From a virus (Duplodnaviria > Heunggongvirae > Uroviricota > Caudoviricetes): 5,938 bases of DNA. The notes under the pieces were generated by a model. That model searched no databases. It was not told the origin of the DNA and worked only from the letters and a program-made list of their open reading frames with translations. Positions 1-5,938 of the stretch are shown here, one piece after another (position 1 is the stretch's first letter; each line of letters starts with the position of its first letter). The DNA lies in the IMG/VR virus record IMGVR_UViG_2695420596_000010. One strand, written 5' to 3'. The translations under genes were made by a program, and so were the position numbers.

Positions 1-678
1 GGTATAACAATCGACGATTGCTGGAAAGGCTGGGCCATACTCCTCCGGCAGAAGCAGAAAAAGCTTATTATGCTTCCATCGGAAACGATGATCTGGCAGC
101 CTGAGTTCACAGATAAAACACTCTCCAGGAAACCCGGGGCGGTTCACAGAGGATTCGCCAGAATTCTCGGACGAAAAAGGTTTTATATTGTCTTTTGTTA
201 GTTTGTCTTTTGTGTTTACCTGATTCGGGTAAACGCCTTTACCTGATTTGGGTAAACTTTTTTTACCTGATTCAGGTAAATTTACCTCTTTCAGGTAAAC
301 TTTATTTTTCTTACCTGATTCGGGTAATGTTGACCATTCACTGACCACATTATTAATGCCGATATTCCGCCCGCTCTGAATAAGAATCCCACGCTTTACC
401 AGAACGCTTTTTGCAGCAGAACACTTGTGCGGCAATATCCCGGTCAATTCGGAAAGTTGCTCGTTGCTCACCCAATCCAGTCTTTTATTAAAGCCATATG
501 TTTTGCGCATGACAGCCAGGAAGACCAGAAGCTGGTGCTGTGTTAATCCGGCCAGCATCACAGCTTCCAGCAACTCATTTGCAATGCGCGTATAACCATC
601 GTCGAGATCTGCCACGCGCCGCTCCTTTTGTGCCACATCCGGCACTGGAAAATTGAATATCTCAGCAGTGTTTGCCAT
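1..678 (-). CDS. Replication initiator, lambda O-like (N-terminal iteron-binding domain plus linker); partial, 3' end lies beyond the left edge of the window
   Basis: Manual translation of the minus strand from ATG (complement of 676-678), preceded by GGGAGG (complement of ~683-688), gives MANTAEIFNFPVPDVAQKERRVADLDDGYTRIANELLEAVMLAGLTQHQLLVFLAVMRKTYGFNKRLDWVSNEQLSELTGILPHKCSAAKSVLVKRGILIQSGRNIGINNVVSEWSTLPESGKK... with no stop before position 1. This resembles my recollection of the lambda O N-terminus (ADLDDGY..., LRKTYGWNK, SQLSE motifs). The iterons lie inside the coding sequence, as in lambda O. Absent from the supplied ORF track, presumably because the ORF is open at the window edge. 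Confidence 0.8.
   Translation of the reverse strand, partial: MANTAEIFNFPVPDVAQKERRVADLDDGYTRIANELLEAVMLAGLTQHQLLVFLAVMRKTYGFNKRLDWVSNEQLSELTGILPHKCSAAKSVLVKRGILIQSGRNIGINNVVSEWSTLPESGKKNKVYLKEVNLPESGKKSLPKSGKGVYPNQVNTKDKLTKDNIKPFSSENSGESSVNRPGFPGECFICELRLPDHRFRWKHNKLFLLLPEEYGPAFPAIVDCYT
181..214. other. AT-rich tract flanking the iterons (candidate DNA-unwinding element of the origin)
   Basis: ttttatattgtcttttgttagtttgtcttttgtg is strongly AT-rich and contains two copies of TTGTCTTTTGT. It lies on the gene-distal side of the iterons, the same relative arrangement as in ori-lambda. Confidence 0.5.
215..328. repeat. Origin iteron array: five ~19-bp direct repeats, each an internal dyad TTACC-N7-GGTAA
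   Basis: Read directly: TTTACCTGATTCGGGTAAAC (215-234), TTTACCTGATTTGGGTAAAC (238-257), TTTACCTGATTCAGGTAAA (262-280), TTTACCTCTTTCAGGTAAAC (281-300), TTACCTGATTCGGGTAAT (311-328). Spacing is 19-30 bp. Located within the O-like gene like ori-lambda iterons. Confidence 0.8.
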
Positions 679-764
679 AATTCCTCCCGCAATGAGTGTG
701 TTACGATTTGCACCTGAAAGTCGGTTCTGTTCGCGCAGACCGGCTTTCGCCATTTCCGAACCTG

Positions 765-1310
765 TCATATTGCCCCCAGCATGGTGGTGACCATCGCCAT
801 CAGTGGACCAGCCAAATCCGGGTCCACACGAAACATCGACACAATGCCTTCACTCATCTCCTTCAGTTTCTGGTGGCGTGGTGCGTTGAGAATGACAGCC
901 TGTTTTGCCTCACTGAGTTCCTTTTCCATTTCAGCCAGCCGAGCCATGTAGCTATCCTGCTCAACCAGGTGGCCGCGATATTCCAGCGGTAGTACCGCCA
1001 GAATTGCCGGGGTCAGTTCACGCACGTTATTTCGGTATTTTTCAGAATCGAATTTGTTATCGAGGAAGCGGAACAGCTTCTGGCGTGCACGGCTGACATC
1101 ATCAGGGAAATCGATGGTGCCGCCGCCCTGCTCCCGATACTCATTCACAATGAGTGCGGCAACAACATCCTGATTATCTGCAGCCGACCAGGCGCGAACG
1201 GCATCACGGATTTTTTCGTGGCCTGGCGCCTGTTTTGTTTGAGAACGATTTATCACCGCAGTCGGGCTAAATCCGCTAGTCTGTTGGTATGTAAGTGGTT
1301 GCATAGTCAT
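765..1310 (-). CDS. YdaT-like / CII-type phage regulatory protein (transcriptional regulator in the cII position)
   Basis: 181-aa ORF with ATG start and AAGG a few nt upstream, lying downstream of the cro-like gene on the same strand. Motifs EYREQGGG and PAILAVLPLEYRGHL resemble what I recall of YdaT-family proteins of Rac-type prophages. Family assignment is from memory only. Confidence 0.55.
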   Translation of the reverse strand: MTMQPLTYQQTSGFSPTAVINRSQTKQAPGHEKIRDAVRAWSAADNQDVVAALIVNEYREQGGGTIDFPDDVSRARQKLFRFLDNKFDSEKYRNNVRELTPAILAVLPLEYRGHLVEQDSYMARLAEMEKELSEAKQAVILNAPRHQKLKEMSEGIVSMFRVDPDLAGPLMAMVTTMLGAI

Positions 1311-1334
1311 TGCCTTATCAGTTAACGCCGCAGT

Positions 1335-1568
1335 TTAGGCGGCAGAATTACTCGCGTTAAACAATGGTGCGAGGTCGGGACGAATATCTGCTGGTTTAAT
1401 CTTTCCACCAGTGGCTGAGACAATTTTCATTACATAGCGGGCATCAATTCCGCCACCGTGTAGCCAACGCCAAACTGTGGGTTGGGCTACACCGCATAGA
1501 TCTGCCAGTCGTTTTTGACTACCTGTAATACTGATTGCGAGTTGAATGGTTTGATTTGTCATTATCAA
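1335..1568 (-). CDS. Cro/YdaS-like HTH DNA-binding protein (lytic-side repressor)
   Basis: 77-aa ORF divergent from the CI-like gene. Sequence GSQKRLADLCGVAQPTVWRWLHGG is a typical Cro/YdaS-type HTH. The track start at 1568 is a TTG codon; the in-frame ATG at 1560-1562 (MTNQ...) is the more likely start. Confidence 0.7.
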   Translation of the reverse strand: MIMTNQTIQLAISITGSQKRLADLCGVAQPTVWRWLHGGGIDARYVMKIVSATGGKIKPADIRPDLAPLFNASNSAA

Positions 1569-1593
1569 TTCCTATTGGTATTGCAATGAATGA

Positions 1594-1622
1594 ATAATAG
1601 CAATGCGTATTAATCCAAGCAA
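1594..1622 (-). promoter_or_regulatory. Candidate pR-like sigma70 promoter for the cro-like operon
   Basis: On the minus strand: -35 TTGCTT (complement of 1617-1622), 17-bp spacer, -10 TATTAT (complement of 1594-1599). The dyad at 1596-1611 overlaps the -10 and spacer. Found by eye, not scored. Confidence 0.4.
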
Positions 1623-1636
1623 TAGCAAAACGTGTT

Positions 1637-1665
1637 TTGACCATCAATACGCAAGCGTATAAATT
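1637..1665 (+). promoter_or_regulatory. Candidate pRM-like promoter producing a leaderless CI-like mRNA
   Basis: -35 TTGACC (1637-1642), 17-bp spacer, -10 TAAATT (1660-1665). The predicted start falls at about 1672-1673, on the ATG at 1673, and no Shine-Dalgarno precedes that ATG. The dyad at 1647-1660 overlaps the spacer. Confidence 0.4.
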
Positions 1666-1672
1666 AAAACTT

Positions 1673-2365
1673 ATGAAAAAAGAAACTCTTGCTGATCGCT
1701 TAAACCTAGCGATGGAACAATCTGGAATGTCTCAAGGCGCTCTTGCAAAGGCGTCTGGCGTAGCTCAACCCACAATCTGGAGACTGACAAGCGGCAACGC
1801 TCGCGGCTCAACAAAAATTGTTGAAATAGCTAATGCATTGGGTGTTCGAACAGAATGGCTCTCATCAGGCATAGGCCCGATGAGAAATGACGGTCAACAA
1901 TCAGGGAAGCCTGCTGTCAGCCATTCAAAATACTTCAAAATTGACGTTCTTGATATAGAAGTCAGTGCCGGGCCGGGAGTCATCAACCGTGAGTTTGTAG
2001 AAGTTCTACGCTCGGTTGAGTACTCGTTTGACGATGCTCGTCACATGTTCGATGGTAGGAAGGCAGAAAATATCCGCATCATTAACGTACGCGGTGACAG
2101 CATGTCAGGAACGATCGAACCAGGTGATCTTCTGTTCGTTGATATCACGGTTAAATCTTTCGACGGTGATGGTATCTATGCGTTTCTGTATGACGACACA
2201 GCCCATGTAAAGCGCCTGCAAATGATGAAGGATAAGCTGCTAGTTATCTCTGATAACAAGAGCTACTCACCGTGGGACCCGATCGAGAAAGACGAGATGA
2301 ACCGGGTATTCATCTTCGGGAAAGTCATCGGAAGCATGCCGCAGACGTATAGGAAGCATGGGTAG
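1673..2365 (+). CDS. CI-like prophage repressor: N-terminal XRE-type HTH plus C-terminal S24 (LexA-like) autopeptidase domain
   Basis: The track ORF 1637..2365 begins at a TTG; the first ATG is 1673 (MKKETLADRLNLAMEQSGMSQGALAKASGVAQPTIWRL = HTH). The C-terminal half has the S24 signatures: a candidate Ala-Gly cleavage site (EVSAGPG), the serine motif RGDSMSGTIEPGDLLFVD and the lysine motif HVKRL. This implies RecA/SOS-inducible autocleavage. Confidence 0.85.
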   Translation: MKKETLADRLNLAMEQSGMSQGALAKASGVAQPTIWRLTSGNARGSTKIVEIANALGVRTEWLSSGIGPMRNDGQQSGKPAVSHSKYFKIDVLDIEVSAGPGVINREFVEVLRSVEYSFDDARHMFDGRKAENIRIINVRGDSMSGTIEPGDLLFVDITVKSFDGDGIYAFLYDDTAHVKRLQMMKDKLLVISDNKSYSPWDPIEKDEMNRVFIFGKVIGSMPQTYRKHG

Positions 2366-2476
2366 TGAAGGACGTGTCAACTCTATTTTGTAAGCTATCC
2401 AGACTCACAGTTGCAGATCGACGAGTAACTTACATACAGCACAAAAAAACAATATGCACGTGCTTTTAGACTAGAC

Positions 2477-2491
2477 TTACCATAATGGTAA
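2477..2491. promoter_or_regulatory. Palindrome TTACC-ATAAT-GGTAA at the 5' end of the toxin gene; candidate autoregulatory operator of the TAC operon
   Basis: Perfect 5-bp inverted arms separated by 5 bp, overlapping the ATG at 2485. MqsA-family antitoxins are known to bind short palindromes in their own promoters; the assignment here is inference. Confidence 0.4.
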
Positions 2492-2895
2492 CAAGTATGA
2501 TTCTTAGCAGATATGTGGGAACTCCTCCCCGTGATGGCGAGGACAGAAAGATTCAAGGTGGTCCGCTTTATTTAGATATCATTGATTTGATTGATGAATG
2601 TGACACACTGCCTTGGACTAGACGGTGTATCAGGGATGTTCAATCGCTTTCTTTAGATGCAGATGACATCAAATCTATGGTGATAAAAGCAGTCACTAAA
2701 GGGAGATTTCTAGGTTCAGAATGGTGTCAAGGCAGTAAACCAGGTGTATGGGCAGCTTGTGATGCTTATAGCTTTGAGCACTCATTTTGGTGCCAAGCTA
2801 TGCATAAAGAACTTAATAACGAGTTCTACATTAAATTTTTTGTAAACATTACTGGCAATGTAGTGCTTACAGTATCTCTTCATCTCTCTAATTGA
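2485..2895 (+). CDS. MqsR-like toxin (type II toxin-antitoxin toxin, RelE/MqsR-fold mRNA interferase family)
   Basis: 136-aa ORF directly upstream of an MqsA-like antitoxin. By eye it aligns with E. coli MqsR (PLYLDIIDLI...LSLDADD..., EFYIKFFVNITGNVVLTVS versus MqsR QVYLKITVIHDVLIVSF). Toxin-before-antitoxin order is characteristic of mqsRA. The start is uncertain: 2485 has no clear RBS and 2497 is an in-frame alternative. The region is AT-rich. Confidence 0.6.
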   Translation: MVTSMILSRYVGTPPRDGEDRKIQGGPLYLDIIDLIDECDTLPWTRRCIRDVQSLSLDADDIKSMVIKAVTKGRFLGSEWCQGSKPGVWAACDAYSFEHSFWCQAMHKELNNEFYIKFFVNITGNVVLTVSLHLSN

Positions 2896-2919
2896 GTGAT
2901 GATAAATGAGGATTTTTAT

Positions 2920-3507
2920 ATGAGAAACAACAACATATGTCCAGTTTGTGGTGTAGGTCATCTCACCGTGGAGATGGAGTATGATGATGTTACTTATAAA
3001 GGGGAAACAAAAAATCTCCCAATAAGGTTTTCTGTGTGTGATCAATGTGGTTCGGAAACTGCCACACCAGTCGATTTACGAGAAAACAAACGAATTTTCA
3101 ATGAATACAAAAAGTCTATCGATGGACTTTTAACAGGAAAAGAATTAAAAAAAATTAGAACTGAAGTATGGATGATAACCCAGCAAAAGGCATCCTCTAT
3201 ATTTGGTGGGGGGCCTAAGGCATTTTCCAAGTATGAATCTGATGATGTCATTCAATCAGAAGCAATGGATAAACTGATGCGTTTAGCAGCAGAAGTTCCT
3301 GATGCATTCAAAAGGTTACGGGAATTATCTGGCGAAATCAAAGTTGAAAGAACAGTCTCATCATCTAAATCTTTACCTATATGGAAATCTGAAGCAAAAG
3401 CACAATTTGAAAACGATGATCAGGGATTTGACAGCAAATCACCAGCCCAAACAAAAATGAATCAAACATCAATAAAGATAAAAACTGTTGCTAAGCGGGT
3501 AGCATGA
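2920..3507 (+). CDS. MqsA-like antitoxin: N-terminal zinc-ribbon, central XRE-type HTH, and a ~60-70-aa C-terminal extension (candidate chaperone-addiction segment)
   Basis: Motifs CPVCGVGHL and VCDQCGSE (zinc ribbon), then ITQQKASSIFGGGPKAFSKYESDD, closely resembling the MqsA HTH (LTQKEASEIFGGGVNAFSRYEKG). GAGGA (2908-2912) sits 7 nt upstream of ATG 2920. The track ORF begins at GTG 2896, immediately after the toxin stop (2893-2895). The C-terminal tail (from ~3300) has no counterpart in the 131-aa E. coli MqsA. Confidence 0.8.
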   Translation: MRNNNICPVCGVGHLTVEMEYDDVTYKGETKNLPIRFSVCDQCGSETATPVDLRENKRIFNEYKKSIDGLLTGKELKKIRTEVWMITQQKASSIFGGGPKAFSKYESDDVIQSEAMDKLMRLAAEVPDAFKRLRELSGEIKVERTVSSSKSLPIWKSEAKAQFENDDQGFDSKSPAQTKMNQTSIKIKTVAKRVA

Positions 3508-4007
3508 TGAATGAACTTCTTAGATCAGCAATAGACGCATTATCAATAATGCATATCAATATCAGAGAATCTAACTTTGCTTTTTCTGAAGGGTATAATA
3601 GCTTTAACTTCAACAGCATAAATAAGCAAACACAATCATTTCGTAAGATAAAAAAAATCGAAGCTATTGAATTAGTAAGTGACGATGACTCATTAAAAAA
3701 TGAGCTATATTACTCTTTTCACTACTCAGTTGGGCTTAGATTTATTGCAAAATCCGAAGAAACATCTAAAGACGAAAATGATGTTGATACAATTTTTTCT
3801 ATAGAAGCAATTTTTGAGGCGATATATCGCTCAAAGAGAGAATTATCTAAAGAAGAGTTAGAAGAATTTGCTAAGCAAAATGTAGGTTTTAATGTATGGC
3901 CTTTTTGGCGAGAGTATGTTCAAAACAGCACATCCAGAATGGGAATTACTACAATAGCTATACCATTCTTTAAATTCAATAAATCAGACATACCTTCATT
4001 AGATTAA
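3504..4007 (+). CDS. SecB-like chaperone (third component of a toxin-antitoxin-chaperone module)
   Basis: 167-aa ORF whose ATG overlaps the antitoxin stop (ATGA at 3504-3507), suggesting translational coupling. The C-terminal half aligns by eye with E. coli SecB (TIFSIEAIF versus GIFSIAGI; NVWPFWREYVQNSTSRMGITTIAIPFFKFN versus [29 protein letters not shown]). Confidence 0.7.
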   Translation: MMNELLRSAIDALSIMHINIRESNFAFSEGYNSFNFNSINKQTQSFRKIKKIEAIELVSDDDSLKNELYYSFHYSVGLRFIAKSEETSKDENDVDTIFSIEAIFEAIYRSKRELSKEELEEFAKQNVGFNVWPFWREYVQNSTSRMGITTIAIPFFKFNKSDIPSLD

Positions 4008-4021
4008 ATTCAAATATAACT

Positions 4022-4048
4022 CCCGGCTACCGTGCCGGGTTTTCTTTT
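4022..4048 (+). terminator. Rho-independent terminator of the TAC operon
   Basis: Stem CCCGGC (4022-4027), loop TACCGT, stem GCCGGG (4034-4039), followed by TTTTCTTTT (4040-4048), 15 nt after the chaperone stop codon. Confidence 0.65.
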
Positions 4049-4189
4049 GCCCTCCCCCCATCACACAAACCGTTCAAAAAACCACCACGACCTCACTTCA
4101 GTTATCGCTATGCGATGCAAGTCACAAAATTAATTCTTTTTGCTATCAAACATTTAATATCAAAACACATCAACTAATAGCAATAAGCA

Positions 4190-4218
4190 TTGATATCACC
4201 AATAGCAATAGCTATTAT
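4190..4218 (+). promoter_or_regulatory. Candidate pL-like promoter with overlapping operator dyad (OL-like)
   Basis: -35 TTGATA (4190-4195), 17-bp spacer, -10 TATTAT (4213-4218), reading towards int. The dyad AATAGC-AATA-GCTATT (4201-4216) overlaps the spacer and -10, and matches 13 of 16 positions of the OR-region site AATAGCAATGCGTATT (1596-1611). Confidence 0.5.
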
Positions 4219-4411
4219 CACCATATCGCAACAACACAACGATACGGCAACCACCTGATTCACCGTTGCGATGACCGCTTAGATCCGCAGCTTGAATTTC
4301 AGCAGGCTTCGGGGAGTGCGAGGGATGAAACGGACGCGTGAACGTCGGTGTGACCAGCTGAAATCAACTCAACATTTCATACCTTAGTCGCTTCAACGAG
4401 GCGGCTTAGTT

Positions 4412-4702
4412 ATGACAACCGGCGGCCATCCACCGCCTGAATACGCGCAGAAGTCTTTATATGTTCAGCAGCCCAGCTTACGGGCAGGAGTTTTTATGGT
4501 TCATCAACATTACGGAACGCAGACCGTTAATCGCGGTGCGGTCATGCCAGGAATGCTGGTCAAACGCAAAGATGGTACCTGGACTGCATCAGCTAATTTA
4601 CACGGACGACTTTATCTGCATCGCGGCATTGAGCGCACTTATACCCGTGACTTGCTCGTGGAAGTTTTTCTCGACGGACGCGGCAACGGTCTGAATCACT
4701 AA
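4412..4702 (+). CDS. Hypothetical protein (no recognisable family)
   Basis: 96-aa ORF with ATG and a weak GAGG ~10 nt upstream, between the pL-like promoter and int. No recognisable motif; it is not lambda-Xis-like or N-like. An alternative-frame ORF (4461..4694) overlaps it, so coding status is uncertain. Confidence 0.3.
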   Translation: MTTGGHPPPEYAQKSLYVQQPSLRAGVFMVHQHYGTQTVNRGAVMPGMLVKRKDGTWTASANLHGRLYLHRGIERTYTRDLLVEVFLDGRGNGLNH

Positions 4703-4777
4703 TCCCCTTTCCTGTTTTCCGAATCAGCCTGGCATTCCGCGGGCGATTTTTTCACAGCCATTTTCAGGAGTTCAGCC

Positions 4778-5938
4778 ATGAACGCTTATTACATTCAGGA
4801 TCGTCTTGAGGCTCAGAGCTGGGCGCGTCACTACCAGCAGATCGCCCGTGAAGAGAAAGAGGCAGAACTGGCAGACGACATGGAAAAAGGCCTGCCCCAG
4901 CACCTGTTTGAATCGCTATGTATCGATCATTTGCAACGCCACGGGGCCAGCAAAAAAGCCATTAAAGAGTTTGGATTAGGCAGAGACAGGCGAATCGCAA
5001 TCACTGAAGCTATACAGGCCAACATTGAGTTATTTTCAGGACACAAACACAAGCCTCTGACAGCGAGAATCAACAGTGATAATTCCGTTACGTTACATTC
5101 ATGGCTTGATCGCTACGAAAAAATCCTGGCCAGCAGAGGAATCAAACAGAAGACACTCATAAATTACATGAGCAAAATTAAAGCAATAAGGAGGGGTCTG
5201 CCTGATGCTCCACTTGAAGACATCACCACAAAAGAAATTGCGGCAATGCTCAATGGATACATAAACGAGGGCAAGGCGGCGTCAGCCAAGTTAATCAGAT
5301 CAACACTGAGCGATGCATTCCGAGAGGCAATAGCTGAAGGCCATATAACAACAAACCCTGTCGCTGCCACTCGCGCAGCAAAATCAGAGGTAAGGAGATC
5401 AAGACTTACGGCTGACGAATACCTGAAAATTTATCAAGCAGCAGAATCATCACCATGTTGGCTCAGACTTGCAATGGAACTGGCTGTTGTTACCGGGCAA
5501 CGAGTTGGTGATTTATGCGAAATGAAGTGGTCTGATATCGTAGATGGATATCTTTATGTCGAGCAAAGCAAAACAGGCGTAAAAATTGCCATCCCAACAG
5601 CATTGCATGTTGATGCTCTCGGAATATCAATGAAGGAAACACTTGATAAATGCAAAGAGATTCTTGGCGGAGAAACCATAATTGCATCTACTCGTCGCGA
5701 ACCGCTTTCATCCGGCACAGTATCAAGGTATTTTATGCGCGCACGAAAAGCATCAGGTCTTTCCTTCGAAGGGGATCCGCCTACCTTTCACGAGTTGCGC
5801 AGTTTGTCTGCAAGACTCTATGAGAAGCAGATAAGCGATAAGTTTGCTCAACATCTTCTCGGGCATAAGTCGGACACCATGGCATCACAGTATCGTGATG
5901 ACAGAGGCAGGGAGTGGGACAAAATTGAAATCAAATAA
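4778..5938 (+). CDS. int: Tyrosine site-specific integrase, lambda Int family; catalytic region near-identical to lambda Int, N-terminal ~66 aa unrelated (chimeric)
   Basis: From [38 protein letters not shown]... to the C-terminal ...[49 protein letters not shown] the protein matches my recollection of lambda Int almost residue for residue, including the catalytic motifs (R in GQRVGDL, HELR, LLGH, tyrosine in SQYRDD). The first ~66 aa ([21 protein letters not shown]...) do not match the lambda Int arm-binding domain. AGGAG lies 7 nt upstream of the ATG. Confidence 0.9.

Follow-up and report, generated by a model that had tools for sequence, protein, structure and literature searches.

The immunity region of the prophage

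The stretch of DNA analysed here (IMG/VR virus record IMGVR_UViG_2695420596_000010, Caudoviricetes), which is 5938 bases long and is referred to below, in its entirety, as the window, is a defective lambda-like prophage. The subject of this analysis is its immunity region, in which the genes and sites follow each other in the order cro(-)/OR/cI(+)/cargo/terminator/OL-pL/kil, to be compared with the order cro/OR/cI-rexAB/tImm/OL-pL of lambda, read on the plus strand (OR and OL, rightward and leftward operators, respectively). The cro-like gene (1335-1562, minus strand) encodes a 75-amino-acid protein of the YdaS family (Pfam YdaS_toxin, 9.6e-15) with the recognition helix AQPTVWRW, and the cI-like gene (1673-2365, plus strand) encodes a 230-amino-acid repressor that combines an N-terminal helix-turn-helix domain with the recognition helix AQPTIWRL (HTH_3, 1.8e-6) and a LexA-type S24 autocleavage domain (Peptidase_S24, 1.3e-18), and also matches UmuD and LexA. 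Downstream of cI, on the same strand, are three cargo genes that encode a small protein (2485-2895), an MqsA-family antitoxin (2920-3507) and a weakly SecB-like protein (3504-4007), and then an intrinsic terminator (4022-4049, plus strand; CCCGGC-loop-GCCGGG followed by a T-run) that closes the cI-cargo unit. A kil-type FtsZ inhibitor (FtsZ-inhibitor family, 1.7e-15) is encoded on the plus strand beyond the leftward promoter pL, most likely at 4496-4702; the longest possible open reading frame (ORF) would start at 4412. The cII position, on the other side of cro, is occupied by a gene for a YdaT-domain protein (765-1310, minus strand).

A sequence-only reading of the window had proposed that three related dyads, located at three predicted promoters, follow the logic of the lambda OR and OL with a different operator sequence. 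The evidence presented below supports the view that these dyads are part of a larger set of 6 or 7 predicted sites for the repressor and the anti-repressor. What is established directly is the position of the boxes relative to the predicted promoters, their enrichment over chance, their conservation, and their co-inheritance with the DNA-reading segments of CI and Cro. From these findings, we consider it highly probable that these boxes serve as operators in a lysis/lysogeny switch of the lambda type, with a previously uncharacterised immunity specificity.

Putative operator boxes and predicted promoters

The gap between cro and cI is 110 bp long and holds three boxes of 16 bp each, as would be expected of a lambdoid immunity region. 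The core of this box family is AATAGCAA, and neighbours are 25 bp apart in this cluster as well as in the second one. The OR1-like box AATAGCAATGCGTATT (1596-1611) covers the -10 element and the spacer of the predicted pR; the OR2-like box AATAGCAAAACGTGTT (1621-1636), 25 bp from OR1, overlaps the -35 element of pR by 2 bp and adjoins the -35 element of the cI promoter; and the OR3-like box AATACGCAAGCGTATA (1646-1661) lies within the spacer of the cI promoter and contains the previously noticed dyad ATACGCAAGCGTAT (1647-1660). The second cluster of the same sites, again as in lambdoid phages, is found at the leftward promoter beyond cI. Here the OL1-like box AATAGCAATAGCTATT (4201-4216) covers the spacer and the -10 element of pL, and the OL2-like box AATAGCAATAAGCATT (4176-4191) overlaps the -35 element of pL by 2 bp. 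The cluster further includes a distal box on the minus strand, GATAGCAAAAAGAATT (4132-4147), 44 bp from OL2, and a weak, degenerate box on the plus strand in the OL3 position, AATATCAAAACACATC (4156-4171; 9.6 bits), 20 bp from OL2. This inventory of three OR boxes and four OL positions comes from a position matrix built from five of the boxes.

The three dyads of the sequence-only reading are thus genuine, and they are found exactly at 1596-1611, 1647-1660 and 4201-4216, but half of the set had been missed (1621-1636, 4176-4191, the distal 4132-4147 and the weak 4156-4171). Their description as dyads fits two of the three well: read from the sequence, 6 of 7 pairs are self-complementary at 1647-1660 and 7 of 8 at 4201-4216, but only 5 of 8 at 1596-1611, which is a weak dyad.

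The promoters on which the boxes are superimposed are predicted with different degrees of ease. The pL-like promoter (4190-4218, plus strand), with TTGATA at 4190-4195, a 17-bp spacer and TATTAT at 4213-4218, matches the consensus in 10 of 12 positions, is the best promoter-like site of the whole window in a consensus scan, and has its hexamers kept in the relatives discussed below. The same scan detects the pRM-like promoter of cI (1637-1665, plus strand), with TTGACC at 1637-1642, a 17-bp spacer and TAAATT at 1660-1665, both hexamers being invariant in the relatives. The ATG of cI follows the -10 element after 7 nucleotides and lacks a Shine-Dalgarno sequence, and these 7 nucleotides vary among the relatives at a fixed spacing, which suggests that the cI mRNA is probably leaderless. 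The pR-like promoter of cro (1594-1622, minus strand), with TTGCTT at 1622-1617, a 17-bp spacer and TATTAT at 1599-1594, is the sole candidate and emerges from a relaxed scan; it was missed by the standard scan because its -35 element matches the consensus in only 3 of 6 positions. Nevertheless, TTGC and TATTAT are kept in the relatives, with TATCAT in one lineage. The previously claimed overlap of the dyads with the spacers or -10 elements of pR-, pRM- and pL-like promoters, which is a feature of lambdoid immunity regions, therefore agrees with both the scans and the conservation of the hexamers.

A fourth box-like sequence is present on the OR side, at 1567-1582 (minus strand AATACCAATAGGAATT; 15.2 bits), 29 bp from OR1. 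It is located in the predicted cro leader, where it overlaps the ribosome-binding site of cro, and the pattern AATTCCTA..AGTATT is kept there in most relatives, with Salmonella phage ST104 deviating. Its conservation could stem from the ribosome-binding site or from an additional operator.

Enrichment of the boxes over chance

The core AATAGCAA occurs four times in the window (1596, 1621, 4176 and 4201) against 0.41 occurrences expected, and none of 200 shuffles reaches four; all four copies are on the plus strand and within the two intergenic regions. When one mismatch is allowed, the degenerate 16-bp pattern AATAGCAANNNNNATT yields seven matches against 0.26 expected, all again within these two regions. 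A test that does not presuppose any motif leads to the same result: twelve 8-mers are common to the cro-cI gap and the terminator-kil gap, where 2.2 would be expected, and only 2 of 2000 dinucleotide-preserving shuffles reach twelve.

Conservation in related prophages

Relatives of the repressor were gathered from phage records and from one scan of bacterial genomes, and include those of Salmonella ST104 and SW-70, Klebsiella phage 6, Kluyvera intermedia, K. cryocrescens and K. georgiana, Citrobacter pasteurii, Raoultella lignicola and E. coli 4A7. The scan of the genome collection contributed six loci, a sample that is adequate for footprinting and too small for a fine model of base preferences. 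Nine distinct OR regions from six genera could be aligned without gaps, and in this alignment 3 of the 48 box columns are variable compared to 27 of the 42 columns outside the boxes (Fisher p = 3e-9). Variation affects 2 of 16 columns in OR1, 1 of 16 in OR2 and none of 16 in OR3. The invariant columns outside the boxes are those of the promoter hexamers, and the 9 bp that separate OR1 from OR2 are nearly randomised except for the GC of the pR -35 element.

On the OL side, a pair of strong boxes, spaced by 25 bp and placed on the -35 and -10 hexamers of pL, is retained in these lineages, as is the distal box, the block AATTC.TTT.GCTATCA of which is kept in 9 of 9 lineages, and the spacer tails and flanks diverge. 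In the relatives from Klebsiella, Kluyvera intermedia and Raoultella, the position that is degenerate in the window (4156) is occupied by a good box. The boxes are the conserved part of both intergenic regions in six genera. In ST104, the OL cluster lies upstream not of kil but of the N-like gene 24, which comes with a nut-like sequence of its own, in flanks that are otherwise unrelated, so the boxes follow the repressor rather than the neighbouring genes. The association extends to SaltyDalty and ASU11, in which the N-terminal domain of CI is only 60-67% identical, with AQPTIWR retained, and AATAGC-type boxes are present both at OR and downstream of cI. Klebsiella phage 2b, considered as a further relative, matches only the cargo and the C-terminal part, contains no boxes and is uninformative.

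A single-base peculiarity of the window is seen in OL2, which ends in ...AAGCATT compared to ...AAGTATT in PhiR70_1 and 4A7. Given that this T-to-C change at 4188 affects a position occupied by T in all other aligned lineages, repression of pL might be slightly weaker in the defective copy.

Could these patterns arise from conserved promoter DNA combined with chance AT-rich palindromes, in which case no dedicated repressor sites need to be postulated? Every box contacts a predicted -35 or -10 hexamer, and the regions involved are AT-rich. However, the conservation extends through the spacers of the promoters and the stretch that separates the two -35 elements, DNA that promoter function normally leaves free to vary; one and the same 8-mer recurs in four copies with an exact 25-bp period; the sharing of 8-mers between OR and OL is not reproduced by the dinucleotide-preserving shuffles; and in the heteroimmune phage PhiR47_2, described in the next section, the hexamers keep their positions while the repeated motif is different. 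We regard this explanation as very unlikely.

A natural swap of the immunity specificity

A further comparison is that with PhiR47_2, which is 98.7% identical to the window over 147-1305 (ydaT-O), 89.6% identical over 1809-2366 (cI from codon 46) and 92% identical from the terminator through the pL leader, kil and gam. Two blocks depart from this pattern. The first, 1306-1808, comprises cro, OR and the codons for amino acids 1-45 of CI and has no BLAST homology to PhiR47_2. The second, 4131-4224, comprises OL and pL; it is the only stretch to the right of the terminator that differs between the two phages, is replaced without gaps by a sequence of the same length, and includes the distal box at 4132-4147. 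In PhiR47_2, no match of at least 12 bits to the AATAGCAA matrix was found; its OR and OL share another motif (AAAACAAC..GTTTT), with the promoter hexamers at unchanged positions, and the recognition helices of CI and Cro are SQAAIQK and SQQAVYK, as opposed to AQPTIWR and AQPTVWR in the window. A Klebsiella grimontii prophage likewise has helices that differ from those of the window, and its OR is of the same alternative type. Thus, as in other lambdoid immunity regions, the operators change together with those parts of CI and Cro that read the DNA (the change at OL being documented for PhiR47_2), and the boxes are inherited with the helix-turn-helix segments of these two proteins, not with ydaT, the cargo or kil. 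Furthermore, the N-terminal domain of CI and Cro are 32% identical, and GVAQPT(I/V)WR is common to both; such homology, along with a common recognition helix, is the expected signature of two proteins that compete for the same sites. Gene order, the phylogenetic footprint and the natural swap are all in line with the proposed lambda-like OR/OL logic with a distinct operator sequence, as far as this can be judged from sequence.

The operator family of PhiR47_2 itself (AAAACAAC(C/T)ATAGTTTT-like), seen at both OR and OL of that phage (2160-2260 and 4570-4660) in a cassette equal in length to that of the window, is by the same comparison a predicted second immunity type of which we found no description.

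The swap also bears on the identity of the protein that reads the boxes. YdaT and the MqsA-like antitoxin of the cargo are DNA-binding proteins encoded beside the boxes, and the YdaT of CP-933P is reported to bind an inverted repeat (PMC9986795), so one could think of the YdaT/CII-like protein, the antitoxin or a host protein, rather than CI and Cro, as the factor that binds the boxes. But ydaT is 98.7% identical in PhiR47_2, which is without the boxes; ST104 has the boxes yet encodes a lambda-type CII and neither YdaT nor MqsA; 4A7 and an O157:H7 prophage carry other cargo, without MqsA, next to the same immunity region, with the boxes confirmed in 4A7; the site published for YdaT, TTGATTN6AATCAA, bears no relation to the boxes; and co-variation with the helix-turn-helix segments of the phage would not be expected of a host factor. 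In view of the natural swaps in PhiR47_2 and ST104, YdaT and MqsA were rejected as the box binders, and for binding by a factor other than CI and Cro in general there is hardly any probability left.

A possible division of labour between CI and Cro

If CI and Cro are the proteins that recognise the boxes, it is pertinent to ask whether both use the whole family. OR3 is a pure ATACGC/ATACGC dyad that is invariant across six genera, wherever Cro contains QPTVWRW, whereas all boxes at the lytic promoters carry AATAGCAA. OR3 is changed only where the recognition helix of Cro changes: in SaltyDalty and ASU11, Cro has KQPSVSRW and CI still has AQPTIWR, and the box at the OR3 position is (G/A)ATAGCGGAGGCTATA. 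It is tempting to speculate that the half-site classes AATAGCA and AATACG(C/T) constitute a code that separates CI from Cro, so that, with the four positions at OL and the possible additional box in the cro leader (1567-1582), the order of occupancy could be read from the half-site type, and the system would also offer a ready-made orthogonal repressor/operator pair; we deem this a possible but rather doubtful proposition. A related reading, in which CI alone uses the entire box family, Cro reads a subset or another register, such as the ATACGC-type half-sites of OR3 alone, and the operators are shared in part, draws on the same behaviour of OR3. In the window, however, the recognition helices of CI and Cro are almost identical, which favours a common core site as in 434 and lambda, and the comparison of Cro preferences involves only two types of Cro. 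We consider this reading improbable, and in what follows the boxes are treated as shared operators of both proteins.

A proposed model of the switch

With the boxes taken as operators of CI and Cro, the switch would operate as follows. Dimers of the CI-like, SOS-cleavable repressor would bind the 16-bp pseudo-symmetric boxes, approximately AATAGCAAT-N3-GTATT. Occupancy of OR1 and OR2 would block pR and, with it, the expression of cro, ydaT and the replication genes, and occupancy of OL1 and OL2 would block pL, which governs kil and gam and, in an intact phage, also bet-exo-xis-int. OR2 ends where the -35 element of the cI promoter starts, and CI bound there could stimulate its own leaderless transcript, which would run on through the toxin-antitoxin-chaperone cargo to the terminator at 4022. 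Binding of OR3 by the YdaS-type Cro, or by CI in excess, would shut off cI. Induction of the prophage would result from cleavage of the S24 domain stimulated by RecA, if the analogy to lambda and CP-933P holds. The 25-bp spacing, the additional OL boxes and the 2.5-kb distance between OR and OL are compatible with cooperative binding and looping. In the defective copy contained in the window, CI would chiefly silence kil and the cro-ydaT genes.

Several considerations weigh against this scheme or parts of it. OR1 is a poor dyad, in which 5 of 8 positions pair, and half-sites of the AATAGC type do not stand in the same register as those of the AATACG type, which makes the true recognition unit uncertain. 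The promoters pR, pRM and pL are predictions, pR with the weak -35 element mentioned above, and the boxes overlap promoter elements, so that part of their conservation could reflect promoter function. The CI helix that precedes the recognition helix (SQGALAKASGV) has no acidic residue, which makes lambda-style activation of the cI promoter doubtful; activation from OR2 is accordingly speculative. The same holds for cooperative pairs and for OL-OR looping across 2.5 kb, which are analogies only.

The cargo and its probable transcription unit

The claim that the cargo is expressed together with the repressor is plausible on the grounds of position and orientation: the genes are on the same strand as cI, and the interval that separates them from cI was found to contain no terminator-like site, so that read-through from the cI promoter can be envisaged. 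An additional source of expression might exist, however. The cargo is preceded by a 119-bp gap in which a perfect 7+7 palindrome TTACCATAATGGTAA (2477-2491; TTACCAT-A-ATGGTAA) extends across the start annotated for the first cargo gene (2485) and lies inside a promoter-like match (2472-2501). This palindrome may be the operator of the MqsA-family antitoxin, and the cargo may have an autoregulated promoter of its own at this site.

The interval between the cI stop and the terminator (2366-4021) is a cargo hotspot. The three-gene MqsA/SecB-like set of the window is replaced by a hypothetical protein and an ASCH-domain protein in 4A7, by GevT/GevA in PhiR47_2, by HipA/HipD in PhiR5_1 and by a SIR2-family protein in the O157:H7 prophage, and the terminator is kept after unrelated cargo in PhiR47_2 and ST104. 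The first cargo protein of the window (2485-2895), a putative toxin, belongs to no Pfam or NCBIfam family. With this layout, exchangeable genes would belong to the transcription unit of the repressor by virtue of their place ahead of the terminator.

Comparison with known switches

The resemblance to lambda is extensive. In both cases, cro and cI are transcribed divergently from a gap that holds three boxes; a second cluster is situated at pL, separated from the first by cI, the accessory genes and a terminator; the lytic promoters have boxes on the -10 element and spacer and on the -35 element, and a further box lies within the promoter of cI; the cI transcript is leaderless, or probably so in the window; the repressor combines a helix-turn-helix domain with a LexA-type cleavage domain; and OR and OL are about 2.5 kb apart. 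Neighbouring operators of lambda are spaced by 23-24 bp, compared to 25 bp in the window. The differences are equally clear. The boxes are 16 bp long with the core AATAGCAA, in contrast to the 17-bp TATCACCGC type of lambda; Cro belongs to the YdaS family and is related to the N-terminal domain of CI; the cII position is taken by a YdaT-domain protein; no N gene is seen in the pL-kil interval; OL includes a distal box 44 bp away; and toxin-antitoxin-chaperone cargo takes the place of rexAB.

Among the studied systems, the window is closest in architecture to the PaaR2/YdaS/YdaT switch of the E. coli O157:H7 prophage CP-933P, for which footprinting and reporter assays have demonstrated repeated operators at PR/PRM and at PL (OL1-3) (Jurenas et al., mBio 2021, PMC8630535). 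The two have in common a YdaS-type Cro, a YdaT-type CII, and a leaderless repressor gene with toxin-antitoxin cargo in its unit. Unlike CP-933P, the window has a repressor with an S24 peptidase domain and cargo of the MqsA/SecB type rather than PaaA2-ParE2, and the published operator consensus of CP-933P, GTTTAGTAA, is unrelated to AATAGCAA, so the window is not of the CP-933P immunity type.

In the record of ST104, cI and cro are annotated as 'similar to HK022', and HK022 has a gap between OL2 and OL3 as well as OL-OR looping (Carlson and Little 1993, as summarised in PMC8053113). The HK022 immunity type was nevertheless rejected: the CI of HK022 is 40% identical to that of the window, and there is no AATAGCAA-type box of at least 12 bits in the HK022 immunity region, which indicates a different specificity. 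The closest solved relative of the DNA-binding domain of CI is the N-terminal domain of the 434 repressor (PDB 1per, 2or1, 1r69). The sequence relationship is weak, CI residues 6-67 matching the engineered dh434 at 1.6e-5 and the natural 434 repressor at 2.1e-5 to 1.2e-4. The 434 repressor has the recognition helix QQSIEQ and a 14-bp operator of the ACAA..TTGT type, in contrast to QPTIWR and the 16-bp AATAG..CTATT-type box of the window.

A search for six of the box sequences in the searchable literature, with most subscription journals outside its reach, retrieved no paper, and within that literature the operator specificity of this immunity type appears to be undescribed. What emerges is most probably an ordinary switch with an apparently new specificity, which leaves the general understanding of such switches unchanged.

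Distribution and implications

The immunity type, defined by at least 95% identity over cro, OR and the N-terminus of cI, was detected in 718 of the 5426 complete E. coli genomes (about 13%), including O157:H7, and has relatives in Salmonella, Klebsiella, Kluyvera, Citrobacter and Raoultella. Knowledge of the boxes is of use in annotation, makes groups of superinfection immunity predictable from sequence and shows which promoters would be silenced by a resident repressor, that of the kil-type cell-division inhibitor being among them. Because kil would be silenced in this manner in the defective copy, the repressor might be hard to lose. Should the tentative half-site code be true, an orthogonal repressor/operator pair present in about 13% of the complete E. 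coli genomes would control swappable defence and toxin-antitoxin cargo.

Other features of the window

Over 1300-4420, the window is 99.9% identical to phage PhiR70_1 (PV340577), and over 147-5938 it is 100% identical to a prophage remnant located beside ybhC in several E. coli strains from chicken and human sources. Relative to PhiR70_1, bet, exo and xis have been lost, along with the intervening genes, by a deletion that created a single gam'-'int ORF (4778-5938, plus strand; Pfam Gam at residues 1-64, Arm-DNA-bind at 63-99). This ORF consists of the first 64 residues of Gam and an integrase without the start of its arm-binding domain and is annotated in RefSeq as two pseudogene fragments. 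The pL-like promoter does lie downstream of the terminator, as had been noticed, and reads into kil and then into gam'-'int. The further claim that it reads into int holds for this copy because of the deletion fusion; in the intact phage, int is about 3.9 kb downstream of pL. A weak terminator-like hairpin (4727-4744) precedes gam.

In this phage group, the interval from pL to kil (4219-4495) showed no N-like ORF. When a nut- or put-like antiterminator was sought in the pL leader, Rfam contained nothing relevant, the segment 4225-4415 folded no better than shuffles (z = -0.9), and a distant BLAST search recovered only close relatives, along with a 44-bp match in HK225.

The left end of the window, positions 1-146, is a different, foreign sequence joined on, because the best genomic matches start at 147, within the O-type replication gene. 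Frame 3 of this segment reads ...YNNRRLLERLGHTPPAEAEKAYYASIGNDDLAA up to a stop at 102-104 and resembles the end of an insertion-sequence transposase; the 33-residue left-end peptide has no match in NCBIfam. Inside the truncated O-type gene, at about 190-340, are several direct repeats composed of TTACCTGATTCGGGTAAAC-like units, presumably the iterons of the replication origin.

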